A DNA stretch of 64,000 nt, taken from positions 71,736,001 to 71,800,000 of the forward strand of contig CM059432.1 in NCBI GenBank assembly GCA_030390025.1, in the 5' to 3' direction. This document shows, one piece after another, positions 19,149 to 59,496 of the stretch; the stretch's first letter is position 1, and the number at the start of each line of letters is the position of its first letter. This stretch comes from Squalus acanthias (lineage: Eukaryota). The notes beneath the pieces are model-generated. The model made no database searches and was not told where the DNA came from. It was given only the letters and a program-made list of their open reading frames with translations. The translations under genes and the position numbers were made by a program.

Positions 19149-20047
19149 TACCTTGTTCAAAATGGATACTCCATCTACATCTACAGCGATCAGAGAAAGT
19201 TAATAGATGGCACAAAGACTGGACAGATTACAATGAGCCACCAGACAAAAGTTAATATTCATGAACTTGATCCTGGTCCAGTTCACATTGCAGTTTAGTG
19301 CAATGAGGAGGGATAGCTACTGTAAATCTACCGTGTGCGATTACTTCTGTTCAATTGTCCATTTACTGTTTTCAGTTTATAGCCTAAGCTACAGGCAGTG
19401 TGCAGTGTTTATGCTACTGCCCTCTGAGGACACATGATATACCTAATAAACCAAAATACAGTAACAAGGATTTTCTGTTTGATGCCTGAGCTTGTTACAG
19501 ACTACCAATTTAGCAGGTAAAGGCACGCTTTGAGCCATATGGAACGAAGAAACGTTTAGAAGAGTAGGGTGAGATGATGAATCCAAGAAAAGTATTTACA
19601 GTAAATAAAAAAGCACCAATCTGCAATTTGATATTAATCATGATCAATGTTAATTCTTACACCTGGACAACTGGAACTCAGTGCGGCAGAAAGTAATAGC
19701 CTCCCCGTTTCTGTTCAGAAACTGTTGTTAAGCTGTTTAAATGACAAAAGAGTACTGGAAAAGCCCTAACAAATCACGGAGAACTTTTAAAACTGGAAAT
19801 ATAATAAACAGCCCCTATATGTCATTAGTGGTTTCGAAAATGAATCCTTTTTTTTTAAACTGAAAGAACTCAGCATTGACTCAGTGGTAGCACTCTCACC
19901 ACCGACTCAGAAGGTTGTAGGTTCAGATATTAAGCACATAATCCAGACTGACACTTCAGTGCAGTACTGAGGGAGCGCTGCACTGTCAGAGGTGCCGTCT
20001 TTCAGATGAGACGTTAAACCGAGGTCCTGTCTACCTTCTCAGATGGA

Positions 20048-23028
20048 CATAGAAACATAGAAAATAGGTACAGGAGTAGACCATTCGGTCCTTCGAGCCT
20101 GCACCGCCATTCAATGCGTTCATGGCTGAACATGCTACCTCAGTACCCCATTCCTGCTTTCTCGCCATACCCCTTGATCCCCTTAGTTGTGAGTGTTATA
20201 TCTAACTCCCTTTTGAATATATTTAGCGAACTGGCCTCAACAACCTTCTGTGGAAGAGAATTCCATAGATTCACCACTCTCTGGGTGAAGAAGTTCCTCC
20301 TCAGCTCAGTCCTAAATGGCTTCCCCTTAATCCTTAGACTGTGACCCCTGGTTCTAGTTTTCCCTACCATTGGGAACATTCTGCCCGCATCTAATTTGTC
20401 TAAACCAGTCAGGATTTTAAATGTCTCTATAAGATCCCCCCTCATTCTTCTGAACTCCAGAGGATACAAGTTCAGTTGACCCAATCTTTCTTGATATGTC
20501 AGTCCGGCCATCCCAGGAATCAATCTAGTGAACCTTCGCTGCACTCCCTCAATAGCAAGAATGTCCTTCCTTAAGTTAGGAGACCAAAACTGCGCACAAT
20601 ACTCCAGGTGTGGCCTCACCAAGGCCCTGTACAACTGTAGCATCACCTCCCTACTCCTGTACTCAAATCCCCTTGCTATGAAGGCCATCATTCCGTTTGC
20701 TTTCTCGACTGCCTGCTGCACTTGCATTCCCACCTTCAGTGACTGATGTACCATGACGCCCAGGTCTCGTTGCACGTCCCCTTTCCCTAATCTGCCACCA
20801 TTCAGGTAATAGTCCGCCTCTCTATTTTTACCACCAAAGTGGATAACCTCACATTTATCCACATTGTACTTCATCTGCCATACATTTGCCCATTCACCCA
20901 ACCTGTCCAAGTCACTCTGTAGCCTCCTAGCATCCTCCTCATTGTTCACACTGCCTCCCAATTTAGTGTCATCCGCAAATTTGGAGATATTACATTTAAT
21001 CCCTTCGTCCAAATCATTAATATATAATGTAAACAGCTGGGGTCCCAGCACCGAACCCTGCGGTACCCCGCTGGTCACTGCCTGCCATTCTGAAAAGTAC
21101 CCATTTACTCCTACTCTTTGTTTCCTGTGTGCCAACCAGTTCTCAATCCACGTCAACACATTACCCCCAATCCCATGTGCTTTAACTTTGCTCACCAATC
21201 TCTTGTGTGGGACCTTGTCGAAGGCCTTCTGAAAGTCCAAATACACCACATCTACTGGTTCCCCCCTGTCTACCCTATTGGAAACATCCTCAAAAAATTC
21301 CAGAAGATTTGTCAAGCATGATTTCCCTTTCACAAATCCATGCTGACTTGGACCTATCATGTCGCCACTTTCCAAATGGTCTGTTATGACATCTTTAATA
21401 ATTGCTTCCATCATTTTACCCACGACCGATGTCAGGCTGACCGGTCTATAATTCCCTGCTTTCTCCCTCCCTCCTTTTTTAAAAAGAGGGGTTACATTGG
21501 CCACCCTCCACTCCATCGGAACTGATCCAGAGTCTAAGGAATGTTGGAAAATGATCGTCAATGCATCCACTATTTCCAAGGCCACCTCCTTAAGTACTCT
21601 GGGATGCAGACCATCAGGCCCCGGGGATTTTTCAGCCTTCAGTCCCATCAATTTCCCCAATACCTTTTCCCGACTAATAAGGATTTCCCTCAGCTCCTCC
21701 CTCTTACCAGATCCTCTGACCCCTTTTATTTCCGGCAGGTTGTGTGTGTCCTCCACAGTAAACACCGAACCAAAGTACTTGTTCAATTGATCTGCCATTT
21801 CCTTGTTCCCCATTACGACTTCCCCTGTTTCCGACTGCAGGGGACCTACGTTTGTTTTTACTAACCTCTTTCTTTTTACATATTTATAGAAGCTTTTGCA
21901 GTCCATTTTAATGTTCTCTGCAAGCTTCCTTTCATATTTTATTTTCCCTGCCCTAATCAAACCCTTCGTCCTCCTCTGCTGAGTTTTGAAGTTCTCCCAG
22001 TCCCCGGGTTTGCTGCTACTTCTGGCCAATTTGTATGCAACTTCCTTGGTTTTAATACTATCCCTGATTTCCCTTTTTAGCCATGGTTGAGCCACCTTCC
22101 CTTTTTTATTTTTATGCCAGACCGGGATGTACAATTGTTGTAGTTCATCCATGCGATCTCTAAATGTCTGCCACTGCCCTTCCACTGATAGCCCCTTAAA
22201 TATCGCTTGCCAATTTAACCTCGCCAATTCTCGCCTCATACCCTCAAAGTTGCCCTTATTTAAGTTCTGGACCATGGTCTCTGACTTAACTGTTTCCTTC
22301 TCCATCCTAATGTAGAACTCCACCATACTATGGTCACTCTTCCCCAGGGGGCCTCGTACCACAAGATTGCTGATTAGTCCCTCCTCATTACACAACACCC
22401 AGTCCAGGATGGCCTCCCCTCGAGTTGGTTCCTCAACATATTGGTTTAGGAAACCATCCCTTAAACACTCCAGGAAATCCTCCTCCACCGTATTGCTTCC
22501 AGTTTGAGTAGCCCAATCTATATGCATATTAAAGTCACCCATGATAACTGCCGTGCCTTTTTTGCACGCACCTCTGATTTCCTGTTTCATACCCTCCCCC
22601 ACCTCACTACTGCTGTTTGGAGGTCTGTACACAACTCCCACTAACGTTTTCTGCCCTTTGGTGTTCTGCAGCTCAACCCATATTGATTCCACATCCTCCA
22701 AGCTGATGTCCTTCCTAGCTATTGCATTAATCTCCTCTTTAACCAGCAATGTTACCCCACCCCCTTTTCCTTTTATTCTATCCTTTCTGAATGTTGAATA
22801 CCCCTGGATGTTCAGTTCCCAGCCTTGATTGTTCTGGAGCCACGTCTCTGTAATCCCAATCACATCGTATCCGTTAACATCTATTTGCACAGTCAATTCA
22901 TCCACCTTATTACGGATACTCCTTGCATTAAGACACAGAGCCTTTAGGCTTGTTTTATTAACATCCTTTGTCCTTTTAGACTTATGATTTAGTATGGCCC
23001 TTTGTGTTTCTTGCCTTTGTTTACTCGG
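20048..23028 (-). mobile_element. Young CR1 LINE, 5'-truncated just upstream of ORF2
   Basis: (TTTCTATG)n tail at 20048; CATA duplicated at both junctions (20048-20051, 23029-23032); clean insertion into the DeuSINE. Confidence 0.95.
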
Positions 23029-23031
23029 CAT
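20140..23031 (-). CDS. CR1 ORF2: apurinic endonuclease plus reverse transcriptase, uninterrupted
   Basis: 967-codon open frame with NARS, ITETW, GDFN, SDH (APE) and YRPVSL, DFQKAFD, GVPQGS, FADD (RT). Confidence 0.92.
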   Translation of the reverse strand: MPSKQRQETQRAILNHKSKRTKDVNKTSLKALCLNARSIRNKVDELTVQIDVNGYDVIGITETWLQNNQGWELNIQGYSTFRKDRIKGKGGGVTLLVKEEINAIARKDISLEDVESIWVELQNTKGQKTLVGVVYRPPNSSSEVGEGMKQEIRGACKKGTAVIMGDFNMHIDWATQTGSNTVEEDFLECLRDGFLNQYVEEPTRGEAILDWVLCNEEGLISNLVVRGPLGKSDHSMVEFYIRMEKETVKSETMVQNLNKGNFEGMRRELARLNWQAIFKGLSVEGQWQTFRDRMDELQQLYIPVWHKNKKGKVAQPWLKREIRDSIKTKEVAYKLARSSSKPGDWENFKTQQRRTKGLIRAGKIKYERKLAENIKMDCKSFYKYVKRKRLVKTNVGPLQSETGEVVMGNKEMADQLNKYFGSVFTVEDTHNLPEIKGVRGSGKREELREILISREKVLGKLMGLKAEKSPGPDGLHPRVLKEVALEIVDALTIIFQHSLDSGSVPMEWRVANVTPLFKKGGREKAGNYRPVSLTSVVGKMMEAIIKDVITDHLESGDMIGPSQHGFVKGKSCLTNLLEFFEDVSNRVDRGEPVDVVYLDFQKAFDKVPHKRLVSKVKAHGIGGNVLTWIENWLAHRKQRVGVNGYFSEWQAVTSGVPQGSVLGPQLFTLYINDLDEGIKCNISKFADDTKLGGSVNNEEDARRLQSDLDRLGEWANVWQMKYNVDKCEVIHFGGKNREADYYLNGGRLGKGDVQRDLGVMVHQSLKVGMQVQQAVEKANGMMAFIARGFEYRSREVMLQLYRALVRPHLEYCAQFWSPNLRKDILAIEGVQRRFTRLIPGMAGLTYQERLGQLNLYPLEFRRMRGDLIETFKILTGLDKLDAGRMFPMVGKTRTRGHSLRIKGKPFRTELRRNFFTQRVVNLWNSLPQKVVEASSLNIFKRELDITLTTKGIKGYGEKAGMGY

Positions 23032-24012
23032 AAAAGATCCCATGGCACTATTCGAAGAGGAGCAGGTGAGTTATCCTGGTGTTCTGGCCAATATTTATCC
23101 CTCAATCAACATCCCTAAAACAGACAATCTGGTCATGATTTCATTGCTGTTTAAGGTACCTATGTGAAAATTGGCTACCGCTTTTTCCTACATTACAACA
23201 GTGACTACACTTCAAAAGTATTTAATTGGCTGTAAAGCACTTTGAGACACACTGAAGTCGTAAAAGGTGCTATATAAAATGCACGCTCTTTCTAACGCTA
23301 CTGTTTTTAAATTTAGAAGTTAAATATTGAATAAAATATAGTTTTCATTTCTGCTTTCGAAACCTTGATAAAAGATCCCCAAATGGTAAAGGATTAGAAT
23401 CCAGTCTAATAGTTAATAAAAACTGAAGGAATTTTGTGCATGTGAATTAAGATTTATTTTGCACTAACCTGGTAATGTAATGATACATTCATGCTCAACG
23501 TTGGCAGGAGCAATTACCAGGGGAAAAAAATCTACACCTCTTCGCTCTGTAATCAGTTTGGGCCCCAACTTTGATTTACAGTAGCAAACTTTACCATCTG
23601 TGTGAAGAGACCCATTTACACCTTTAATGAAAAGGAGAACTTGCATCCTAATAGCACCTTAAGGGGGAAAAATTCAGTTGGTTGCACCTCCCGTTAGTGC
23701 CTTAAGAGGGCGCTAATGAGGCGCAAAGCAACTAGCGCCCGGGCGCGGCGATGTTTGCGCCGCTCGCGAAATTAACTGGACATTTTGCGGCGGCGCTAAA
23801 CACTACCGCCACGATCTCCTGCGCCGGCAGATCGTGACGTCAGTCGAGTGCGCAACGCCCTGGTGCGGATATTGAGTGGCGCCCCCTGCCTTATCGCCTG
23901 CCACGACAGGTTGAGGGGAGCGTTTTGCAGTCAGGAAGGGACTGGGGGAGCGCTATTTAAAGGCGACCGCTTCCTGCCTTTTTTTGTTGGTGACATTTTT
24001 GAACCACGCATT

Positions 24013-32929: not shown

Positions 32930-34230
32930 CCCTTCTCCTCGCCCCCTTCGATCCCCTCTCCTCGCCCCCTTCGATCCCCTCTCCTCGCCCCCTTCGGTCC
33001 CCCCTCCTCGCCCCCCTTCGGTCCCCCCTCCCCGCCCCCCTTTGGTCCCCCCTCCTCGCCCCCCTTCGGTCACCCCTCCTCGCCCTCTTTCGGTCCCCCC
33101 CCCCCCTTCGGCCCCTCGCCCCCCTTCTGTCTCCCCCCTCGCCCCCCTTCTGTCTCCCCCCTCGCCCCCCTTCGGTCCCCCCTCGCCCCCCTTCGGTCCC
33201 CCCTCCTCGCCCCCTTCGGTCCCCCCTCCTCGCCCCCCTTCGGTCCCCCCTCCTCGCCCCCCTTCGGTCCCCCCTCCTCGCCCCCCTTCGGCCCCTCGCC
33301 CCCCTTCTGTCTCCCCCCTCGCCCCCCTTCGGTCCCCCCTCCTCGCCCCCTTCGGTCCCCCCTCCTCGCCCCCCTTCGGTCCCCCTCCTCGCCCCCCCTT
33401 CGGTCCCCCCTCCTCGCCCCCCTTCTGTCTCCCCCCTCGCCCCCCTTCTGTCTCCCCCCTCGCCCCCCTTCGGTCTCCCCCCTCGCCCCCCTTCTGTCTC
33501 CCCCCTCGCCCCCCTTCGGTCTCCCCCCTCGCCCCCCTTCTGTCTCCCCCCTCGCCCCCCTTCGGTCCCCCCTCCTCGCCCCCCTTCGGTCTCACCCCCC
33601 TCGCCCCCCTTCGGTCCCCCCTCCTCGCCCCCTCCTTCGGTCCCTCGCCCCCCTTCGGTCCCCCCCCTCGCCCCCCTTCGGTCCCCCCTCCTCGCCCCCC
33701 TTCGGTCCCCCCCTCCTCGCCCCCCTTCGGTCCCCCCCTCCTCGCCCCCCCTTCGGTCCCCCCTCCTCGCCCCCTTCGGTCCCCCCTCCTCGCCCCCTCC
33801 TTCGGTCCCTCGCCCCCCTTCGGTCCCCCCCTCGCCCCCCTTCGGTCCCCCCTCCTCGCCCCCCCCTTCGGTCCCCCTCCTCGCCCCCCTTCGGTCCCCC
33901 CTCCTCGCCCCCCCTTCGGTCCCCCCTCCTCGCCCCCCTTCGGTCCCCCCTCCTCGCCCCCTCCTTCGGTCCCTCGCCCCCCTTCGGTCCCCCCCTCGCC
34001 CCCTTCGGTCCCCCCTCCTCGCCCCCCTTCGGTCCCCCCTCCTCGCCCCCCTTCGGTCCCCCCTCCTCGCCCCCCTTCGGTCCCCCCTCCTCGCCCCCCT
34101 TCGGTCCCCTCTCCTCGCCCCCTTCGGTCCCCCCTCCTCGTCCCCCTTCGGTCCCCTCTCCTCGCCCCCTTCGGTCCCCTCTCCTCGCCCCCTTCGGTCC
34201 GCCCCTTCGATTCGCTCTCCTCCCCCACCC
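32930..34230. repeat. C-rich minisatellite, unit about 18-24 bp (CCCCTTCGGTCCCCCCTCCTCG)
   Basis: Dozens of variant units; follows a hAT-like left end CAATGTTCACCCTAATTTT at 32894. Confidence 0.95.
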
Positions 34231-36559: not shown

Positions 36560-39222
36560 TTTTTTCATTTGTTCACGGGATGTGGGCGTTGCTGGCAAGG
36601 CCAGCCTTTATTGCCCATCCCTAGTTGTCCTTGAGAAGGTGGTGGTGAGCTGCCTCAGCCTTAAATATACTCAAAGACTTAGGGGGAAAAATTCAGCTGC
36701 TTGCGCCTCCCGTTAGCGCCTTAAGAGGGCGCTAATGGGGCGTAAAGCAGCTAACGCCCGGGCGCAGCGCCGCCCACGCCTCCCGAAAAATTTAGTGGGA
36801 GGTTAGCGGCGGCGGCAGCCGGTAGCGCCCTGTGGCGCTGCGCCGCCGGCGATGACGTCATCGCCGTGCGCAGCACCCCGCTCGCGCCCCGGCCGTGATC
36901 TTCAGTCGCGCCCCCTGATTTACCGCCAGACGCTATGTCCGACGGGTTCAGGGAGGCGTACGTGCGGCCGGGGCGGCGATATTTAAAGCGGAGGTGGCAG
37001 GCGGCCATTTTTGTTGCTGGCCGCCTGCCAGCACCTGCCCCCGGCCCCCGTGAAGCCCCCCCACCGTGAAGTGCCGGCTGCGCTCCAAGAGCCCGGCACT
37101 TCTCTTGAGTGCCGGGCTCTTTTGCCGGCACTCCCGATCCCTGGGGGCCCAGCTGGGCCCCGGTTCGCGCTGCGCAGGGTCCCTCCCCTTTAAGAAGGGG
37201 AGGAAGGCCTGCAATACCGCGGCGCGACGTGCCGCCCAGGATATTCACTCGCAGCGCCCCAAGAGGGATGCGGGCTGCTTCCAGTTGCGCCCCGCTTCCC
37301 TCTTGGGGCGCAACCACTGAAGTTCCGGCGCGGGGCCGCTAATTTTTTCGGGGCGCTAAAAGTCGCGCCCCGGCGAGGTTAGCGCCCCAAATGGGGCGCG
37401 ACTCAATTTTTACCCCTTAGCATTCACAGCCCTCTGGGGCAGAGAATTCCAAAGATTCACAACCCTCTGAGTGAAGATATTCCTCCTCATCTCGGTCTTA
37501 AATGGCCGCCCCTTATACTGAGACTATGCCCCCTAGTTCCAGACACTCCAGCCAGGGGAAACAACCTCTCAGCATCTACCCTGTCAATCCCCTTCAGAAT
37601 CTTGTATGTTTCAATGAGATCACCTCTCATTCTTCTAAACTCCATAGAGTATAGGCCCATTCTGCACAATCTCTCATCCTAGGACAGCGCTCTCATCCCA
37701 GGAATCAATCTAGCGAACCTTTGTTGCACCGCCTCCAAGGCAAGTATATCCTTCCTTAGATAAGGAGACCAAAACTGTGCACGGTACTCCAGGTGTGCTC
37801 TCACCAAGGCCCTGTATAATTGTAGCAAGACTTCCTTACTCTTATACTCCAACACCCTTGCAATGAAGGCCAACATTCCATTTGCCTTTCTTATTGCTTG
37901 CTGTACCTCCATGCTAGCTTTCTGTGTTTCTTGCACGAGGACACCCAAATCTCTCTGAACACCAACATTTAAAAGTTTCTCACCATTTAAAAAAATATTC
38001 TGTTTTTCTATTCTTCCTACCAAAGTGAATAGCCTCACATTTCCCGATATTATGGTACACACTTCAGCCACGGTGGAGGGAGTGAATGTTTAAGGTGGTG
38101 GATGGGGCGCCAATCAAGTGGGCTGCTTTGTTTTGGATGGTGTCGAGCTTCTTGAGTATTGTTAGAGCTGCACTCATCCAGGCAAGTGGAGAGTATTCCA
38201 TCACACTCCTGGCCTGTGCCTTGTAGATGGTGGAAAGGCTTTGGGGAGTCAGGAGGTGAGAGACTCGCTGCAGAATACCCAGCCTCTGACCTGCTCTTGT
38301 TGCCACAGTATTTATGTGGCTGGTCCAGTTAAGTTTCTGGTCAATGGTGATTGATGATGTGGTATTCGGCGATGGTAATGCCGTTGAATGTCAAGGGGTG
38401 GTGGTTAGACGCTCGCTTGTTAGAGATATTCATTGTCTGGCACTTATGTGGCGTGAATGTTACCTGCCACTTATCAGCCCAAGCCTGAATGTCGTCCAGG
38501 TCTCGCTGCATGCGGGCATGGACTGTGTCATTATCTGAGGAGTTGCGAATGGCACTGAATACTGTGCAGTCATCAGAGAACATCCCCACTTCTGACCTTA
38601 TGATGGAGGGAAGGTCATTGATGAAGCAGCTGAAGATGGTTGGGCCTAGGACAATGCCCTGAGGAACTCCTGCAGCGATGTCCTGGGGCTGTGATGATTG
38701 ACCTCCAACCACCACAACCATCTTCCTTTGTGCTAGGTATGACTCCAGCCAATGGAGAGTTTTCCCCCCAATTAGCATTGACTTTAGTTGTACTAGGACT
38801 CCTTTATGCCACACTCGGTCAAATGCTGTCTTGATGTCAAGGGCAGTCACTCTCACCTCACCTCTGGAATTCAGCTCTTTTATACATGTTTGGACCAAGG
38901 CTGTAATGAGGTCTGGAGCTGAGTGGTCCTGGCGGAACCCAAACAGGGCATCAGTGAGCAGGTTATTGGTGAGTAAGTGCTGCTTGATAGCACTGTCGAT
39001 GACGCCTTCCATCACTTTGCTGATGATTGAGAGTAGACTGATGGGACGGTAATTGGCCGGATTGGATTTGTCCTGCTTTTTGTGGACAGGACATACCTGG
39101 GCAGTTTTCCACATTGTCGGATAGATGCCAGTGTTATAGCTGTACTGGAACAGCTTGGCTAGAGGCGCGGCTAGTTCTGGTGCACAAGTCTTCAGCTCGA
39201 CAGCCGGGATGTTGTTGGGGCC
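36560..39222 (-). mobile_element. CR1-type family X insert (36560-36655, 38053-39222) containing a family Y fragment (36656-38050)
   Basis: The RT part of ORF 38341-39693 (NYRPISLLS, GVPQG, FSDD); ORFs 37487-38071. Confidence 0.8.
36682..37416 (+). mobile_element. PIF/Harbinger MITE family 1b (GC/CpG-rich, young)
   Basis: TIR GGGGGAAAAATT / AATTTTTACCCC; canonical TTA TSD at 36679-36681 and 37417-37419. Confidence 0.9.
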
Positions 39223-40527
39223 TAAGAGTGGGAGAGCAATAGTGGTAGGGGATTCGATAGTTAGGGGAACAGAGAGGCGTTGCTGCGGCCGCAGACGTGA
39301 CTCCAGGATGGTATGTTGCCTCGCTGGTGGCAAGGTTAAGGATGCAACTGAGCGGCTGCAGAGCATTCTGAGGGGGGAGGGTGAACAGCCAGAGGTCGTG
39401 GTCCATATTGGTCCCAACGACATAGGTAGAAAGAGGGATGAGGTCCTGCAGGCAGATTTTAGGGAGCTAGGAAAGAGATTAAAAAGCAGAACCTCAAAGG
39501 TAGTAATCTCCAGATTACTCCCGGTGCCACGCGCAAGTGAGTATAGAAATAGGAGGATCGAGCAGATGCATGCGTGGCTGGAGAGATGATGCAGGAGGAA
39601 GGGCTTTAGATTCCTGGGGCATTGGGACCGGTTCTGGGGGAGGTGGGACCTGTACAGGCCGGACGGGTTGCACCTCAACAGGGCCGGAGCCAATATCCTC
39701 GCGGGGAGGTTTGCTAGTGCTGTTGGGGAGGGTTTAAACTAATTTGGCAGAGGGATGGGCACCAGGATGTAACATTAGAAAGGGGAAATAAAGTGCTCAA
39801 AGGATTGGGAGAGGCAGAGAGCACTAAAGTAAGAAATAGTAAGGTATTAGGTGGGGTCCAACTAAGAGAGAATACAGGATGGTCTAAGATGGATTTACAG
39901 TGTATGTATGTGAACGCACAAAGCGTAGTAAACAAGGTAAGTGAGCTGCAGGCACAAATAGCCACATGGGAATATGACGTTGTGGAAATAACTGAGACCT
40001 GGCTCAAAAAAGGGCAGGATTGGGTATTAAATATTTCTGGTTGTAAGGTGTTTAGGAAAGAAAAGATAGGAGGTGGTGTGGCAGTATTGGTTCAGGAGAA
40101 TGTTATAGTGCTGGAGAGGGAGGATGTCCTGGAGGGGTCAAGGACAGAATCTATATGGCTAGAGTTAAGAAACAATAGAGGTGCCATTACACTACTAGGT
40201 GTATTCTATAGGCCACCAAATAGTGGGAAAGATATGGAGGAACAAATTTGCAGAGAAATTACAAAGAGGTGCAAGAGCGATAGAGTAGTAATAATGGGGG
40301 ACTTCAACTATCCTAATATAGACTGGGATTGTAATAGTGTCAAGGGCAGAGAAGGGAAAGAATTTCTGAAGTGTGTTCAGGAGAACGTTCTTGATCAGTA
40401 TGTTTCTGGCCTGACGAGGGAGGAGGCATTGCTGGATCTGGGGAATGAGGTAGGTCAAGTTTAGCAAGTGTCAGTAGGTGAACATTTAGGGTACAGTGGT
40501 CGTAGTATCATAAGGTTTAGATTAGCT

Positions 40528-41816: not shown

Positions 41817-43482
41817 TTATGATCTAAAATTGTTGAACTCGATATTGAGTCCAGAGGGCTGTAGCGTGCCTAAACGAAAGATGAGGTGCTGTTCCTCGAG
41901 CTTACGCTGCGCTTCCGTGGAACAGTGTAATAGGCCGAGGACGGTGAGGTCTGAGTGGGAGTGAAGCGGTGAATTAAAGTGACAGGCGACCGGGAGCTCG
42001 GGGTCCCCCTTACGGACTGAACGGAGGTGTTCCGCAAAGCGGTCACCCAATCTGCGTTCGGTCTCCCCAATGTAGAGGAGACCGCATCGTGAGCAGCGAA
42101 TACAGTATACTAAATTGCAGGAAGTACAAGTAAATCGCTGTTTCACCTGGAAGGGGTGTTTGGGGCCCTGGACAGTGGGAAGAGGGGAGGTATAAGGGCA
42201 TGTGTTGCATCTCCTGCGCTTGCACGGGAAGGTGCCGGGCGAAGGGGAAGGGATGCTGGGGGTGGTAGAGGAGTGGACTAGGGTGTCGCGGAGGGAGCGG
42301 TCCCTGCGGAATGCTGAAAGGGGAGGTGAGGGGAAGATGCGTTTGGTGGTGGGATCACGCTGGAGGTGGCGGAAATGGCGGAGGATGATCCGTTGAATGT
42401 GGAGGCTGGTGGGGTGAAAGGTGAGGACAAGGGGAACTCTATCGTGGTTCCGGGAGGGAGGGGCAGGGGTGAGGGCAGAAGTGCGGGAGATAGAACGGAC
42501 ACGGTCGAGGGCCATGTCGATCACGGTAGAGGGGAATCCTCGGTTGAGGAAAAAGGAAGACATGTCGGAAGCACTGGTATGGAAGGTGGCATCATCAGAG
42601 CAGATGCGGCGGAGAAACTGGGAGAATGGAATAGAGTCCTTACAGGAGGCGGGGTGGGAGGAAGTGTAGTCCAGGTAGCTGTGGGAGTCAGTGGGCTTGT
42701 AGTGAATGTTAGTCAATAACCTATCCCCAGAGATGGAGACGGAGAAGTCGAGGAAGGGAAGGGAAGAGTCGGAGATGGACCATGTGAAGGTGAGGGAAGG
42801 GTGGAAATTGGAAGCATAGTGAATGAAATGTTCTAGTTCGGGGCGAGAGCAGGAGACGGCACCGATACAGTCATCAATGTACCGGAAAAAGAGGTGAGGG
42901 AGGGGACCCGAGTAGGACTGGAACAAAGAGTGTTCCACATATCCCACGAAAAGGCAGGCATAGCTAGGACCCATGCGGGTACCCATAGCAACACCTTTAA
43001 TTTGGAGGAAATGGGTGGAGTCAAAGGAGAAGTTGTTCAATGTGAGAACAAGTTCAGCCAGGCGGAGGAGGGTGGTGGTGGATGGGGACTGGTTGGGCCT
43101 CTGTTCAAGGAAGAAGCGGAGCGCCCTCAGGCCATCCTGGTGGGGGATGGAGGTGTAGAGGGATTGTACGTCCATAGTGAAGAGGAGGCGGTTGGGGCCA
43201 GGAAACTGGAAACTGTTAAAATGGCGGAGGGCGTTGGAAGAGTTGCGGATGTAGGTGGGAAGAGACTGGACAAGGGGAGAAAAAATAGAGTCGAGATAGG
43301 AAGAGATAAGTTCTGTGGGGCAAGAACAGGCTGAAACGATGGGTCTACCGGGGCAGTCCTGTTTGTGGATCTTGGGAAGGAGGTAGAAGCGGGCTGTGCG
43401 GGGTTGGGGAACTATGAGGTTGGCGGCCATGGGGGGAAGATCTCCAGAGGAGATGAGGTCAGTGACGGTCTTGGAAATGGTG
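41817..43482 (-). CDS. Penelope RT plus GIY-YIG endonuclease (N-terminally truncated, open frame)
   Basis: LPKIHK, GRPIVS, DVQSLYTSIP, GVAMG, RYIDD, LVYCIRC..C..LYIGET. Confidence 0.9.
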
Positions 43483-45462
43483 GTATGACAGATGTCAGGT
43501 TGCAAATACATCTGAGAATCAGGCTCTACATAGAAAGGTCAGAGGAGGAGTGAAAAAGAAAATAAGAGGGGCAAAGAGAGGGTATGAGAATAGAATGGCA
43601 GCCAACATAAAAGGTAATCCAAAAGTCTTCTATAAGCATATAAATACTAAAAGGGTAGCAAAAGGAGGGGTGGGGCTGATTATGGACCAAAAAGAAGGCC
43701 TATGCATAGAGGCAGAGGGTATGGCTGAGGTACTAAATGAGTCCTTTGCATCTGTCTTCACCAAGGAAGAGGATGCTGCCATAGACATAGTGAAGGAGGA
43801 GATAGTGGAGACACTTGATAGTATAAAAATTGATAAAAGAAGTTATTAGAAAGGCTGGCTGTACTTAAAGTAGATAAATCACCAGGAGCGGATGAGATGC
43901 CTCCTAGGATGCTGAGGGAATTGAGAGCAGAAATCGCGGAAGTACTGGCCATCATATTCCAATCCTCCATAGATATGGGGGTGGTGCCAGAGGACTGGAG
44001 AATTGCAAATGTTACACCATTGTTCAAAAAAGGGTGTAAAGATAAACCCAGCAACTATAGGCCAATCAGTTTAACCTCGGTAGTGGGGAAGCTGTTAGAA
44101 ACAGTAATCAGGGACAAAATTAACAGTCGCTTGGATAGGTGTGGATTAATTAAGGGAAGCCAGCACAGATTTTTTTTGATGAGGTAACAGAGAGGGTTGA
44201 TGAGGGCAATGTGGTTGACGTGGGTTACATGGACTTCCAAAAGGTTCTAAGACCACTGCTTTTCTTGATATATATTAATGACTTGGACGTGTGTGTACAG
44301 GGCACAATTTCAAAATTTGCAGATGACACAAAACTTGGAAGTATAGTGAACAGTGAGGAGGAGGAGAGTGATAGACTTCAAGAAGGCACAGACAGGCTGG
44401 TGAAATGGGCGTACACGTGGCAGATGAAATTTAACGCAGTAAAGTGTGAAGTGATACATTTTGGTAGAAAGAATGAGGAGAGGCAACATAAACTAAATGG
44501 TACAATCCTAAAGGGGGTGCACGAACAGAGAGACCTGGGGTTATATGTGCAGAAATCGTTGAAGGTGGCAGGACAGGTTGAGAAAGCAGTTAAAAAGGCT
44601 TACGGGATCCTGGGCTTCATAAATAGAGGTATAGAATACAAAAGTGTGGAAATTATGATGAACCTGTATAAAACACTGGTTCGGCCCCAACTGGAGTACT
44701 GTGTCCAATTCTGGGCACCACACTTTAGGAAGGATGTGAAGGCCTTAGAGAGGGTGCAGAAAGGATTTCTGAGAATGATTCTAGGAATGAGGGACTTCAG
44801 TTACGTTGATAGACTGGAGAAGCTGGGGTTGTTCTCCTTGGAGCAGAGGAGATTTGATAGAGGTGTTCAAAATCATGAGGGGTCTGGACAGAGTAGATAG
44901 AGAGAAACTGTTCCCATTGGCAGAAGGGCCGAGAACCAGAAGACACAGATTTAAGGTGATTGGCGAAATAACCAAAGGCGGCATAAGAAAAAACTTCTTA
45001 ATGCAGCGAGTGGTTAAAATCTGGAATGGTGGTGGAGGCAGACTCAATCTTATCTTTCAAAAGGGAGTTGGATAAGTAGCTGAAGGAAAACAATTTGCAG
45101 GGTTACGGGGGAAGGGCAGGGAGTAGGACTAGCTGAGAGTCTGCATGGGCTCGACGGGCCAAATGACCGCCTTCCGTGCTGTAACCATTCTATGATTCTG
45201 TTCTGCTGCCTCTTCCGGAGCATTCCCCACCCGACAGGGAGCCAAGCCTGTCGAACAGGTTGGCTTCTGGGCGGGGAGTCTGCTTTAAAAAAAAACACAC
45301 GCCATGGAGTTAAAATTCCACGCCGTTCGGGGAAACCCAACCCCAACTATAACTCCTCCGCCGCCACCCCCTGCTTGGAAATCTCACCCCAGTAACTATA
45401 GGGGTCATAATTACTAACTTTTTTGTCTCATATTTTTGTTAATTAAAAAAGTTTAATGCAGC

Positions 45463-46505: not shown

Positions 46506-47100
46506 CTTTTTTTATTCGTTCCTGGGATGTGGACATTGCTGGCAAGGCCAGCATTTATTGCCCATCTCTAATTACCCTTGAAAAGGTGGTGGTGAGCTGT
46601 CTTCTTGAACTGCTGCAGTCCCTGTGTTGAAGGTTCTCCCATAGAAACATAGAAACATAGAAAATAGGTACAGGAGTAGACCATTCGGTCCTTCGAGCCT
46701 GCACCGCCATTCAATGCGTTCATGGCTGAACATGCTACCTCATGTTCAGCCATGAACGCATTGAATGGCGGTGCAGGCTCGAAGGACCGAATGGTCTACT
46801 CCTGTACCTATTTTCTATGTTTCTATGTTTCTATGGGAGAACCTTCAACACAGGGACTGCAGCAGTTCAAGAAGACAGCTCACCACCACCTTTTCAAGGG
46901 TAATTAGAGATGGGCAATAAATGCTGGCCTTGCTGATAGGGAGGGAGTTCCAGGATTTTGACCCAGCAACGATGAAGGAACAGCGATATATTTCCATGTC
47001 AGGATGTCCTTGTCCTTCTAGGTGGTAGAGGTCGTGGGTTTGGGAGGTGCTGTCGAAGAAGCCTTGGCGAGTTGCTTCAGTGCATCTTGTAGATGGTGCA
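46506..47100 (-). mobile_element. CR1-type family X 3' end, host of the fold-back insertion
   Basis: Homologous to 1480-1830. Confidence 0.8.
46542..46933. repeat. Perfect inverted repeat: 193-bp arms, 6-nt spacer
   Basis: 46542-46734 is the reverse complement of 46741-46933; spacer CTACCT. Confidence 0.95.
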
Positions 47101-47470
47101 CTGGAAACAGTCTCTCCTTATTTACTCTATGAAAACCATTCATGATTTTGAACCCCTCTATCAAATCTCTCTTAAACTTTTCTACTCTAAGGAGAACAAC
47201 CCAAGCTTCTCCATTCTCTCCACATAACTGAAGTCCCTCATCCCTGGTAACATGCTAGTAAATCTCTTCTGCACCCTCTCCAAGGCCTTGACATCCTTCC
47301 TAAATTGGGGTGCCCAGAATACTCCAGCTGAGGCCTAACCAGTGTTTAATAAAGGTTTAGCATAACTTCCTTGCTTTTGTACTCTGTTCCTCTATTAATA
47401 AAGCCAAGGATCCCGTATGTTTTTTTCTAAACAGCCTGCTCAACTTGTCCTGCTACCTTCAAAGATTTAT
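47100..47470 (-). mobile_element. CR1 family Y fragment
   Basis: Similar to 8850-9070 and 13230-13310. Confidence 0.75.
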
Positions 47471-47558
47471 GCTATAAGAATATTGGACATAGCAGCAGAA
47501 TGAACATCTTTTGCTTGGCCATATTAACCATCCTGCATTGCAAATCATTTAAAGTGAT

Positions 47559-48207
47559 GGGCCTAAAAATTTGGTTGCTTTGCGCCTCCCGTTAGCACCC
47601 TAAGAGGGTGCTAACGGGGCGAAAAACAACTAGCACCCGGGCGCGGCGTCACCAACGCCTCCCGCGAAATTCAGCGGGCGGTTAGCGGCGGCGGTAACAG
47701 CGCCCTGCGGTGCTGTGCCACCGGCAATGACATCATCGCAGCGCCACGCTCGCGCCCTGGCCACGATCTTCGGTAGCGCCCCCTGACTTACTGCCGGATG
47801 CTATATCCGACGGGATCAGGGGGGCCTAGCTGCGGCCGGGGCGGCACTAATTAAAGGCGAGGTACCGGGCGGCCATTTTTGTTGCTGGCCGCCTGCCAGC
47901 ATCTGCCCCTGTTGCCGTCCCCGGCCTCCTGACCAGCCCCCCCCCCCCCCCCCCCCCCCCCCCGGGCGGAGTGCCACCTGCACTCCGTGAGCCCGGCACT
48001 TCTCTTGAGTGCCGGCACTCTGATCCCTGGTGGCCCAGCTGGGCCCCGGATCACGCTGCGCAAGGCACCTCCCCTTTAAGAAGGGGAGGAAGGCCTGCAG
48101 TACCGCGGCGCGACGTGCCGCAGTGCGTGATGCTGCAGCATGTAGCGCCGCGACATTCCCTTGTAGCGCCCCGCTTCCCTCTTGAGGCGCTACCGATGAA
48201 TTTCGGC
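47559..48207 (+). mobile_element. PIF/Harbinger MITE family 1b, right end lost
   Basis: Colinear with 36682-37330; poly-C expansion at 47937-47963. Confidence 0.8.
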
Positions 48208-49789: not shown

Positions 49790-52700
49790 TAGACTACATC
49801 TTCAAGGGAGAACCAGACCAAATACAGTAAGTTGAGAGGGGATGTGAAGATGAAAATAAGATTGGCAAAGAGAGAATATGAGAGTAGAATGGCAGTTAAC
49901 ATAAAAGGGAACCCAAAAATCTTCTACCAGCATGTAAACAGTAAGCGGGTAGTAAGAGGCGGGGTGGGGCCTATTGGAGACAAAGAAGGTGATATATGCT
50001 TAGAGGCGCAGGGAAAGACTAGAATACTCAATGAGTACTTTGTATCAGTGTTTACTAAGGAGGTGGATGCTGACAAAATATCGGTAGAAGTGGAAAAGGT
50101 AGAAGCAATGGAAGGGGTGAAAATTGACAGACAGGATATAGTAGAAAGGCTGGGTATGCTTAGAGTGGACAAGTCACCTGGTCCAGATGGCTTGCATCCC
50201 AGGTTGCTAAGGGAATTGGGGGAGGAGATAGTGGAAGGGCTTGCCATAATTTTCCAATCTTCCCTAGATGCGGGGGAGGTGCCTGAGGATTGGAAAGTGG
50301 CAAATGTGACACCATTGTTCAAGAAAGGGTATAAGGAAAATCCTAGTAACTACAGGCTGGTCAGTTTAACATCAGTGGTGGGTAAAGTTTTAGAAACAAT
50401 AATCAAGAAAAAAATTAACGGGCACTTGGAGAGATTTAAGCTAATTAAGAAGAGCCAGCACGGATTTGTAAAAGGCAGACTAATCTAATTGAATTTTTTG
50501 ATGACGTAACAGAGAGCATTGATGAAGGGAATGCAATGGATGTTGTCTACATGGATTTTCGGAAGGTGTTTGACAAAGTACCACATAGAAGGCTGGTTAA
50601 CAAAATTGAGGCTCATGGAATAGGTGGGTCAGTGGCAGCTTGGATAAGGAATTGGCTTAAGGACAGAAAACAGTGAGTTGTGGTAAATGGCTGTTTTTCA
50701 GACTGGAGGATGGTAGACAATGGTGTTCCCCAAGGGTCAGTGCTGGGGCCACTGCTTTTTTTGATATATATAAATGACCTGGATATTGGAATACAGAGTA
50801 GAATTTCTAAATTTGCCGATGACACCAAACTAGGGGGTGTGGCAAACAGTGATGATGATACTAATCGACTGCAACAGGACATAGAAAGGCTGGCAGAATG
50901 GGCAGACAAGTGGCAGATGGGCTTTATAAATAGAGGTATTGAATACAAAAGTAGAGAAGTTATGCTGAACCTTTATAAAGCGCTGGTTAGGCCACAACTG
51001 GAGTATTGCTTCCAGTTCTGGTCACCACACTTTAGGAAGGATGTGAAGGCCCTTGAAAGGGTGCAGTGGAGATTTACCAGAATGGTTCCGGGGATGGGGG
51101 ATCTTAACTACAAGGACAGGTTGGAGAAGCTGGATTTGTTTTCATTAGAGCAAAGGAGGTTGAGGGGTGATTTGATAGAGGTATACAAGATTATGATGGA
51201 AATAACAACAGAAAACGCTGGAAAAACTCAGCAGGCCAGGCAACATCCGTGGAGAGAGAAACAGAGTTAACGTTTCAGGTCGAAACCCTTCGTCGGAACT
51301 GAGAGAAGAGCAGGAAATTAAACAGATAAAAATGCAAGGGGGAGGCTGGGGGGAGGAATAAAAGAACAAAAGGGGTGGTCTATGGTAAGTAGAGACATTA
51401 AGAGATGCTCAAGGCAAGACAAGATGGTAATGGGACAGGTTAAGAAACAAAAGGTGAGGTGTGAAATGCTGGCAGAATGAGAGACAGCTGCCGTAGGGGG
51501 AGAGAGAGAAAAAAAAGGGGAAAAAGGCACAGACCAAAAGGGTGGATAAAATGTATATATATGTGGTTGTGATCTGAAATTGTTGAACTCGATATTGAGT
51601 CCGGAAGGCTGTAAAGTGCCTAAACGAAAGATGAGGTGCTGTTCCTCGAGCTTACGCTGAGCTTCCGTGGAACAATGCAAGAGGCCAAGGACGGTGAGGT
51701 CTGAGTGGGCATGAAGGGGTGAATTAAAATGACAAGCGACCGGAAGCTCGGGGTCACCCTTACGGACTGAACGGAGGTGTACCGCAAAGCGGTCACCCAA
51801 TCTGCGTTCGGTCTCCCCAATGTAGAGGAGACCACACTGTGAGCAGCGAATACAGTATACTAGATTGCAAGAAGTACAAGTAAATCGCTGTTTCACCTGG
51901 AAGGGGTGTTTGGGGCCCTGGAGAGTGGGAAGGGGGGATGTATAAGGGCAGGTGTTGCATCTCCTGCGCTTGCACGGGAAGGTGCCGGGTGAAGGGGAAG
52001 GGGTGCTGGGGGTGATAGAGGAGTGGACTAGGGTGTCTCGGAGGGAGCGGTCCCTACGGAATGCTGAAAGGGGAGGTGAGGGGAAGATACGTTTGGTGGT
52101 GGGATCACGTTGGACATGGCGGAAATGGCAGAGGATGATCCGTTGAATGTGGAGGCTGGTGGGGTGAAAGGTGAGGACAAGGGGAACTCTATCGTGGTTC
52201 CGGGAGGGAGGGGCCGGGGTGAGGGCAGAAGTGCGGGAGATAGAACGGACACGGTCGAGGGCCGTGTCGACCACGGTAAAGGGGAATCCTCGGTTGAGGA
52301 AAAAGGAAGACATGTTGAAAGCACTGGTATGGAAGGTGGCATCGTCGGAGCAGATGCGGCGGAGACGGAGAAACTGGGAGAAGGGAATAGAGCCCTTACA
52401 GGAGGCGGGGTGGGAGGAAGTGTAGTCCAGGTAGCTGTGGGAGTCAGTGGGCTTGTAGTGAATGTTGGTCAATAACCTATCCCCAGAGATGGAGACGGAG
52501 AAGTCGAGGAAGGGAAGGGAAGAGTCGGAGATGGACCATGTGAAGGTGAGGGAAGGGTGGAAATTGGAGGCAAAGTGAATGAAATTGTCTAGTTCGGGGC
52601 GAGAGCAGGAAACGGCACCGATACAGTCGTCAATGTACCGGAAAAAGAGGTGAGGGAGGGGACCCGAGTAGGACTGGAACAAAGAGTGTTCCACATATCC

Positions 52701-53515
52701 CACGAAAAGGCAGGCATAGCTAGGACCCATGCGGGTACCCATAGCAACACCTTTGATTTGGAGGAAATGAGTGGAGTCAAAGGAGAAGTTGTTCAATGTG
52801 AGAACAAGTTCAGCCAGGCGGAGGAGGGTGGCGGTGGATGGGGACTGGTTGGGCCTCTGTTCAAGGAAGAAGCGGAGCACCCTCAGGCCATCCTGGTGGG
52901 GGATGGAGGTGTAGAGGGATTGTACGTCCATGGTGAAAAGGAGGCGGTTGGGGCCAGGAAACTGGAAACTGTTAAAGTGGCAGAGGGCGTCAGAGGAATC
53001 GCGGATGTAGGTCGGAAGGGACTGGACAAGGGGAGAAAAAATAGAGTTGAGATAGGAAGAGATAAGTTCCGTGGGGCAAGAGCAGGCTGAAACGATGGGT
53101 CTACCAGGGCAGTCCTGTTTGTGGATCTTGGGAAGGAGGTAGAAGCGGGCTGTGCGGGGTTGGGGAACTATGAGGTTGGCGGCCGTGGGTGATTATGATG
53201 GGTTTGGATAGGCTAGACGGGGAAAGGCTGTTCCCACTAGTTGATGGTACAAGGACTAGGGTCACAGATTTAAGGTTTTGGGCAAGAGATACAGGGGGGA
53301 TGTGAGGGGAAACTTTTTTACGCAGTGAGTGGTGAGGACCTGGAACTCGCTGCCGACGGAAGTGATGGAAGCGGAGACACTCAATGTTTTCAAGGGGAGA
53401 CGGGATAGGCACCTGAGGGAAATAAACTTGCTGGGCTACGAGGATAGAGCGGGGGAATGGGACTGACTGGATTGCTCTACAGAGAGCCGGCGCGGACTCA
53501 TTATGTTATGACTCT
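49790..53515 (+). mobile_element. CR1 family Y ORF2 and 3' end, split by Penelope (segments 49790-51199 and 53191-53515)
   Basis: ORFs 49832-50488 and 50680-51200; EVYKIMM|GLDRL continues across the insert. Confidence 0.9.
51200..53190 (-). mobile_element. Penelope-like element family A, 5'-truncated; hammerhead variant at 51265-51300
   Basis: 11-bp TSD GATTATGATGG at 51189-51199 and 53191-53201; ORF 51318-52931 with RYIDD and GIY-YIG; CCGACGA-A-GGGT(TTCG)ACCT-GAAACGTT. Confidence 0.95.
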
Positions 53516-58214: not shown

Positions 58215-59496
58215 TCAAGAATAAATTGTTAATTTGGCGTTGCACATTTTGTGATGTTTCTCATTTGACCTTTGCCCGGTGATGGGGGCTGCGAGCTGGA
58301 TGTAATGATGTGGTTGTGCTGCGCAAACGCCATGTGCTATCTCATTTATTGAAAGCGTGTCTAATGAGGCACCCACGCACGACCCTTGCAGAAGCAAGAT
58401 TGAGCGGCTCCCTCCTCCGTTGCTGCTGCTGCTCCTCCTCTTCATCCTCCTCCTCTGCCTCATCCTCCTCCTCTGCCTCATCTCCTCTCCCTCTTCCTCC
58501 TCCTGAGGTGGACTTGCAATCCCTGGTGGCAATGGCTGGGCCCTCAGAATGACTAGGTTGTGGAGCATGTAGCACACAACGATGAAAAGGGAGACTCGAT
58601 CAGGGGAGTACTGCAGGGTTCCTCCAGAGCGGTCAAGGCAGCAGAACCGTTGCTTCAGCACGCCGATAGTCTGTTCGATCAGGTTCCTGATGGCGCTATG
58701 GCTGTCATTGTATGCGTGCTGAGCAGGAGTGTTGGGGTTGCGGAGGGCTGTCATCAGCCAGGTGGTGAGTGGATAACCCTTGTCTCCGAGCAGCCAGCCG
58801 CGAGTTACATGTGGTGGGTGGAACAGGATAGATGCATTGTGGCTGCTGCCAGGATACTGGACATTGACGGCGAGGATGCGCTGTCTGTAGTCGCACACCA
58901 ACTGAATGTTCAGAGAATGGTAGCCTTTGCGGTTACAGAACATCTCTGTATTGTGATGAGGTGCCCGCAATGCCACGTGGGTGCAGTCAATGGCGCCCTG
59001 AACCATGGGGAAGCCCACTATCCTTGAAAAGCCACATGAGCGTTCATCCTGTTTCTCTCTGGTTATGGGGAATGAGATGTACTCCCTTCTCCTTCTGTTA
59101 CCTCCCGGATGCAGCAATGGACGGCGAACTGCAAAATGTTTGCAATATCCCCTGTTGAAGCCTGGAAGGAGCCGCTGGTGTAGAAATTGAGAGCAACTGT
59201 GACCTTAACTGCCAGTGAGAGAGACGTCCTGGTCCTAAGCTGAGGCTGGCGCTCTGGCTGCAGGAGGTGGCAAACCTCTGTGACCACCTCCTTGCTGAAG
59301 CGGAGCCTTGTAAGGCACTGCTTCTCTGACAGATGAATGCAGGAGAAGTGCTCCCAGAAAGCCCTGGGAGGGTAAGGCCTCCTGTTGATAGCCCTGTTGG
59401 CCCTCCTCCCTCTGGCCACATTTTGCAATCTTTCTGCCTTCGCTGCCTCCGACGGTGACGCCGGAGGGCGAGGTCCAGTGCCAGTACAGCTCCCAT
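58215..59496 (-). pseudogene. Harbinger (HARBI1-like DDE) transposase, frameshifted
   Basis: AVKVTVALNFYTSGSFQ, GFPMVQGAIDCTHV, NRKGYHSLNIQLVCD, YPGSSHN, WLLGDKGYPL, RNLIEQTIGVLKQRF, MLHNL. Confidence 0.92.

Follow-up and report, generated by a model that had tools for sequence, protein, structure and literature searches.

How the 5′ end of a LINE insertion becomes joined to its target is an open question, and a perfect palindrome at positions 46542-46933 of the window (the whole 64-kb stretch of DNA that was analysed) poses it in a particular form: by what route did a short, 5′-truncated insertion come to stand beside a mirror image of itself and of its own flank? As judged from the junctions in the sequence, the locus was probably produced by one TPRT event, in which a cDNA of ~100 nt primed on itself, copied itself together with the flank and was rejoined to the target by microhomology. 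If this is real, an RT-extended end can stay free, fold back and copy over its 3′ junction into ~100 nt of flank, and can then be rejoined without loss, in a natural vertebrate genome and in a clade other than L1 or R2; such events would also be one birth route of short perfect palindromes. The weight of the case is small, as it rests on one locus to which neither a gene nor a function is attached.

Anatomy of the palindrome

The palindrome comprises two 193-nt arms (46542-46734 and 46741-46933), which are 100% complementary and are connected by a 6-nt loop, CTACCT. The perfect fold-back structure with two identical arms that was described in a sequence-only reading of the locus is thus present. 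It is the only long palindrome among the 11 perfect inverted repeats of the 64-kb window (arms of at least 11 nt, spacer of at most 40), the arms of the runner-up extending over 15 nt, and the 193-nt inverted repeat lies far outside the window background. The sequence proceeds from the left target through the tail and 3′ UTR to the loop, and continues with the mirrored 3′ UTR, tail and flank until the right target is reached. From 46743 onwards, the stretch 46542-46732 is read again as its reverse complement, and the tail, an extra 8-mer and the 3′ junction are all mirrored letter for letter between the arms. At the locus 286 bp were added (46645-46930); this insertion is a dead product and displays no sign of function. 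The structural elements are listed below.

46507-46644, minus strand: left target part, the 3′ end of an older LINE family, with a minus-strand A-tail near 46507; TPRT primer side
46537-46553, no strand: target hairpin with a 7-bp stem and a 3-nt loop, inside which the fold-back copy ends
46542-46734, plus strand: left arm, 98 nt of target followed by 95 nt of CR1 tail and 3′ UTR, with 5 nt common to both
46640-46644, plus strand: CATAG overlap between the target and the 8-nt tail repeat, the likely TPRT priming site; the 8-mer periodicity reaches left to 46640
46645-46742, minus strand: 5′-truncated CR1-type insertion, the remaining 8-mer tail and the entire 3′ UTR, reaching the ORF2 stop codon
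46735-46740, no strand: turn loop, 6 nt of element sequence, closed by a 2-bp stem when element bases alone are considered
46741-46933, plus strand: right arm, in which cDNA, tail and ~100 nt of the left flank are copied by fold-back
46931-46933, plus strand: TGC rejoin overlap, 3 nt, at which the right target end meets the fold-back copy
46931-47101, minus strand: right target part, a LINE fragment that resumes at the base after 46644

Sequence comparison agrees with the earlier division of each arm into ~98 bp of old target and ~95 bp of CR1 3′ UTR, the flank portion of the right arm corresponding to 46831-46933.

The inserted element and its reference copy

The element sequence at 46647-46742 is identical over its full length (96/96 nt) to 20047-20142, confirming the identity to a young copy that had been noticed at 20048-20142. 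This copy serves as the reference and is not necessarily the donor.

20047-23030, minus strand: young CR1-type reference copy of 2,984 bp, with an open EN and RT frame, 5′ truncated and sitting in a SINE-like repeat

The open frame (20143-23070) matches Pfam RVT_1 (E = 2e-34) and Exo_endo_phos (E = 1e-12), and the family is called young because the frame is open with both EN and RT. The C-terminal motif of the element presumably resembles that of CR1. Features by which CR1 elements have been recognised are EN and RT in one ORF, an 8-nt microsatellite end and a 3′ UTR hairpin upstream of it (PMC8665684). In the young copy, endonuclease and RT lie in one ORF, and the 3′ end is formed by an 8-nt microsatellite with no poly(A). 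The tail unit on the sense strand, TTTCTATG, is present in two units at 20047 and in three at 46640 (counting the overlap), and is similar, but not identical, to the avian CR1 unit ATTCTRTG (PMC8665684). Small 5-bp stems were predicted in the 3′ UTR, with folding no better than that of shuffles (z of 0.40 for RNA and of -0.42 for cDNA). The protein matches of the young copy (103) include no named CR1 reference, the best named being uncharacterised ray/shark proteins. Taken on these sequence features, the inserted family is probably CR1.

The reference copy is truncated at its 5′ end near the start of the endonuclease domain, the SINE-like repeat resumes at 23031 and CATA is found at both ends; its junction displays a 5-nt overlap of tail and target, with 0-4 bp duplicated. 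In both young insertions, target and tail repeat agree over 5 nt at the insertion site (46640-46644 and 20047-20051), hinting, with n = 2 insertions, at tail-guided priming in the young CR1-type family. Searches for the family in other data gave no relatives: a 25-nt stretch of the 3′ UTR had no exact match in metagenome contigs, and the 3′ UTR motif had none in viral contigs. A looser 21-nt motif retrieved three metagenome loci, which are chance matches because none of the three resembled the window any further or matched itself in inverted orientation.

The target site

The flanks of the insertion belong to the 3′ part of another, older LINE family. The left target part is 85-87% identical to paralogs at 1482, 4450 and 929, and across the duplicated 103 nt the identity is 86-88% (89/103, 88/103 and 91/103, respectively). 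This target family is linked to the RT frame at 38344-39738 (minus strand), which is 35% identical to the frame of the young element. Two inverted older-LINE copies (2-931 and 1482-2402), 550 nt apart and 88% identical, look as if they had arisen independently and not by fold-back.

Five target paralogs (1482+, 28644-, 4450+, 929- and 36555) were aligned across the cut. Positions 46644 and 46931 fall on adjacent bases in paralogs 1482+ and 28644-, and are one base apart in 4450+ due to a 2-nt deletion of its own. By inspection, paralog 929- has the same continuous sequence across the cut as the others, and 36555 stops short of it. Contigs of the family in all four compared sequencing runs have the same consensus sequence before 46931. 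Most likely, no target bases were lost at insertion, because the paralogs show the target resuming at the base after the cut; on this alignment, the insertion is also without a target-site duplication. The loss of a few bases that had been proposed from the locus itself is not supported, the paralogs giving 0 bp, or at most 3 bp, since they read CACAG where the locus reads CATAG, and a T at 46642 derived from the tail would mean that up to 3 bp were replaced.

The turn and the rejoin

Short overlaps are present at each junction, comprising CATAG (5 nt) at the 3′ end, 2 bp at the turn and exactly 3 nt, the TGC already recognised as a microhomology, at the rejoin. Positions 46740-46742, with which the cDNA ends, are complementary to the ORF2 stop codon, and CATG is found on each side of the loop. 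The sequence-only reading had placed the turn at the ORF2 stop beside a CATG palindrome; the position stands, but CATG as element sequence does not, as only two of its four bases are accounted for. The element supplies only CA, pairing with TG, and its copies continue GTAC (four contigs, run X5). A role for the stop codon in the turn is not supported either, given one case and a competing 3-4-nt overlap of element and target nearby. At the truncation point the element shares AGT with the cut site (CAGT with the paralog sequence), an overlap that was noted post hoc and has little weight, and that competes with the stop codon as the reason for the stop. Other 3′-anchored matches to the young element in the window number five, namely three older copies of 600-1,250 nt and the two arms of the palindrome, which are too few for a test of a stop-codon hotspot.

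Stems of 2 bp are common, occurring at 37% of positions in the element, and 4-bp stems with such a loop occur at 2.6-3.7% of positions. As TG forms the start of the right target end, a plain join yields a 4-bp stem over the same loop; the copy ends inside the 7-bp target hairpin, and hairpins of this kind cover 2.5% of the window. Both of these are post hoc observations of little weight. At 9 nt before the rejoin, the fold-back copy had passed over 5 nt that match the right end. In the predicted fold of the cDNA end the last 11 nt are unpaired. A structural pause at the turn was also considered and was ruled against, with folding no better than that of shuffles.

Proposed route of formation

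A CR1-type ORF2 protein would have cut the old LINE remnant, with priming where the target CATAG matches the 8-nt tail repeat. The cDNA would have halted after ~100 nt, at the ORF2 stop codon, a point that can be read directly from the locus. Its free 3′ end may then have folded over the 6-nt loop, held by 2 bp or, alternatively, by 4 bp if the cDNA had first copied two bases off the right target end; self-priming perhaps followed an aborted first join. Synthesis would have retraced the cDNA and tail and continued for ~100 nt into the left flank, stopping in the target hairpin and leaving the product that is seen in the right arm. Such back-copying would require the left flank to be single-stranded (resected) or displaced. 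The new end may finally have annealed via TGC to the right end of the same break, with the second strand filled in. As for the polymerase responsible for flank copying and rejoining, we lean slightly towards one of host repair that worked on a resected end, and the element's own RT is a serious but less favoured candidate.

A single event is favoured because both switch points coincide with the 5′ junction of the insertion: the turn lies exactly where the element fragment stops on its 5′ side, and the target is re-entered at the base after the cut. Copying of DNA that had already been joined is required because the tail, the extra 8-mer and the 3′ junction are mirrored exactly. Counting against a snap-back are the 2-bp stem, which is weak and common, the unpaired last 11 nt in the predicted fold of the cDNA end, the 5-nt match that was passed over, the restriction to a single locus, and the 4-bp CATG-loop-CATG of the plain junction, which would also suit a later template switch. 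The core proposal of truncated TPRT, snap-back, copying of cDNA and flank, and rejoining by microhomology fits every junction and is retained as the best explanation. An extension of it, in which the CR1 family of cartilaginous fish undergoes recurrent snap-back, focused at the ORF2 stop by an RNA cut or RT pause and seeding near-perfect 3′-UTR palindromes, is considered very doubtful; if it were true, the palindromes would be fragile sites and, if transcribed, would give hairpin RNAs against the active family.

Alternative explanations

The locus might instead have arisen in two steps, with a plain 5′-truncated CR1 insertion followed by a later template switch during replication or repair, which folded back at the 5′ junction of the insertion, copied ~190 nt and returned at TGC. 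The plain junction makes a 4-bp inverted match round the same loop, as the right target end begins with TG, and yeast provides an established case of fold-back priming, at short inverted repeats close to breaks (PMC10622511). A later switch would, however, have both of its switch points at the old junction by coincidence, which the 4-bp stem lessens but does not remove, and the TG match is in any case a 1-in-16 coincidence, one that would suit an aborted first join in a single event too. Two steps are therefore held to be unlikely, the single event remaining preferred.

An artefact, in which the mirror derives from a fold-back chimeric read or a consensus error, is less probable still. Fold-back chimeras happen in long-read and amplified libraries, the arms are perfect, and no spanning read or contig is present among the matches listed from four runs. 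A chimera of this kind tends to reproduce the remainder of the molecule in mirror form, or to lose sequence. The case against an artefact is anatomical: the sequence at this locus rejoins the target at its pre-insertion base through 3 nt of overlap, and it turns at the point where the element is truncated. Twenty sequencing runs were matched, all as contigs, with a best word share of 0.59, and four of the 20 were compared over 46700-47900. Among the matches listed (15 joints, with 271 more; 24 loose ends and 32 pieces, with 1,876 and 170,299 more), none bridges the turn or the rejoin, and none represents an empty allele of this locus. The comparison says nothing either way because repeat copies swamped it (27,763 to 49,172 records per run), and the lack of spanning contigs is evidence neither for nor against the palindrome. 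A 99-nt contig from run X3 equals 47442-47540 without difference, so the neighbourhood is present in the organism sequenced there, although X3 could itself be the source sample.

Copying from the right end would give the same final sequence with the same TGC and CA/TG overlaps. The 3′ strand of that end would invade the left flank at GCA, copy flank, tail and 3′ UTR, and anneal by 2 bp to the cDNA end, and L1 templated insertions, with a source within 15 bp of the site and less than 250 bp in length, lend this some plausibility (10.1101/2024.08.27.596794). It requires a continuous bottom-strand template over the new 3′ junction, or a second priming with the same tail length, and involves more steps than self-priming; its probability is judged marginally lower than that of an artefact. 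Classical twin priming, which gives inverted 5′ element sequence and sometimes short internal duplications (median 22 bp; 10.1101/2024.08.27.596794), can practically be set aside, as had been argued before: the inverted part is without upstream element sequence (nothing beyond 20142 is present), the whole tail is repeated, and the inverted arm includes ~100 nt of genomic flank (46831-46933), which a second primer on RNA cannot copy, a flank-carrying RNA being unsupported by the site-specific target sequence.

Relation to described systems

At R2 snap-back junctions the cDNA end primes on cDNA or on nearby target DNA before joining (PMC11371274, PMC11331408). By the two sequence criteria of that class the present locus works in the same way, as the cDNA 3′ end is directly followed by reverse-complemented cDNA and target, and this antisense stretch in turn meets the opposite target end at 46931, where 3 nt overlap. 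Unlike the R2 system (PRINT: engineered, site-specific rDNA, human cells), it represents a CR1-type insertion of natural origin, in which copying carried on across the 3′ junction of the element and into the flank, resulting in a near-perfect palindrome.

In L1 inverted duplications, a small hairpin with 2-bp homology primes synthesis at the reciprocal end (10.1101/2024.12.14.628481). A TPRT break, 2-bp-primed synthesis, an inverted flank and subsequent joining are common to these and to the present locus. The two L1 inverted duplications involve the reciprocal end and genomic DNA only, with target-site overlap (10.1101/2024.12.14.628481). Here, in contrast, the RT-extended end folds, element and flank are both doubled, there is no target-site duplication, and the duplicated flank is the tail-side (primer) flank. 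Foldbacks of the L1 RT end are described as chromosome-scale and without local rejoining (10.1101/2024.12.14.628481), in contrast with the local rejoin observed here. L1 templated insertions, of which 22 cases were reported (10.1101/2024.08.27.596794), similarly incorporate copies of neighbouring genomic DNA, of less than 250 bp; their main-text description includes neither self-copying of cDNA nor a palindrome. The locus shares with twin priming (10.1101/2024.08.27.596794, PMC10760644) inverted element sequence at a truncated 5′ end, but twin priming inverts upstream element sequence from RNA and leaves tail and flank unmirrored.

Beyond these elements, the L2 element ZfL2-2 has blunt and microhomology junctions (PMC2666801). 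In yeast break fold-back a resected 3′ end likewise folds, using a short inverted repeat, and a host polymerase then extends it (PMC10622511). No retrotransposon is involved in the yeast process, and its long duplications are resolved via repeats, in contrast to the 190-nt copy and local rejoin described here. The self-priming described in PMC3995500 and PMC10760644 belongs to other processes. No CR1 snap-back, and no copy through an element's own tail into the flank, was found in the running text of the open-licence literature that was searched. Novelty is lower than was implied, the R2 snap-back class and 2-bp-primed L1 inverted duplications being already described. The locus is a tidy natural example; related accidents are known from other retrotransposons, so it represents no new system.

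Age of the event

The event is young relative to the target LINE, and long, tightly spaced palindromes tend to vanish quickly, which would favour youth. With no difference over 193 bp, the divergence between the arms is at most 1.55% (95% upper bound), or ~1.1e7 generations at 7e-10 per site per generation, a rate determined for the epaulette shark (PMC10587355) and borrowed for this locus. Conversion between the arms would loosen this bound further. The sequence-only reading had taken identical arms to imply a very recent event, which goes too far, as they allow an age of up to ~1.1e7 generations.

The surrounding window

The window is repeat-rich, containing several RT frames and a DDE transposase frame (58218-59204, minus strand; DDE_Tnp_4, E = 1e-30). 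Two related long frames, at 41820-43538 and 51321-53192 (both minus strand), display weak RT matches below curated cut-offs, and one of them also has a weak GIY-YIG match below the curated cut-off; both frames are presumably Penelope-like. Short perfect inverted repeats with 11-15-nt arms are found at 36995-37403 and 47588-47618, within a GC-rich repeat family. A C-rich minisatellite of ~54 copies of a 23-24-nt unit extends from 32935 to 34206, and a run of 27 C occupies 47937-47963.
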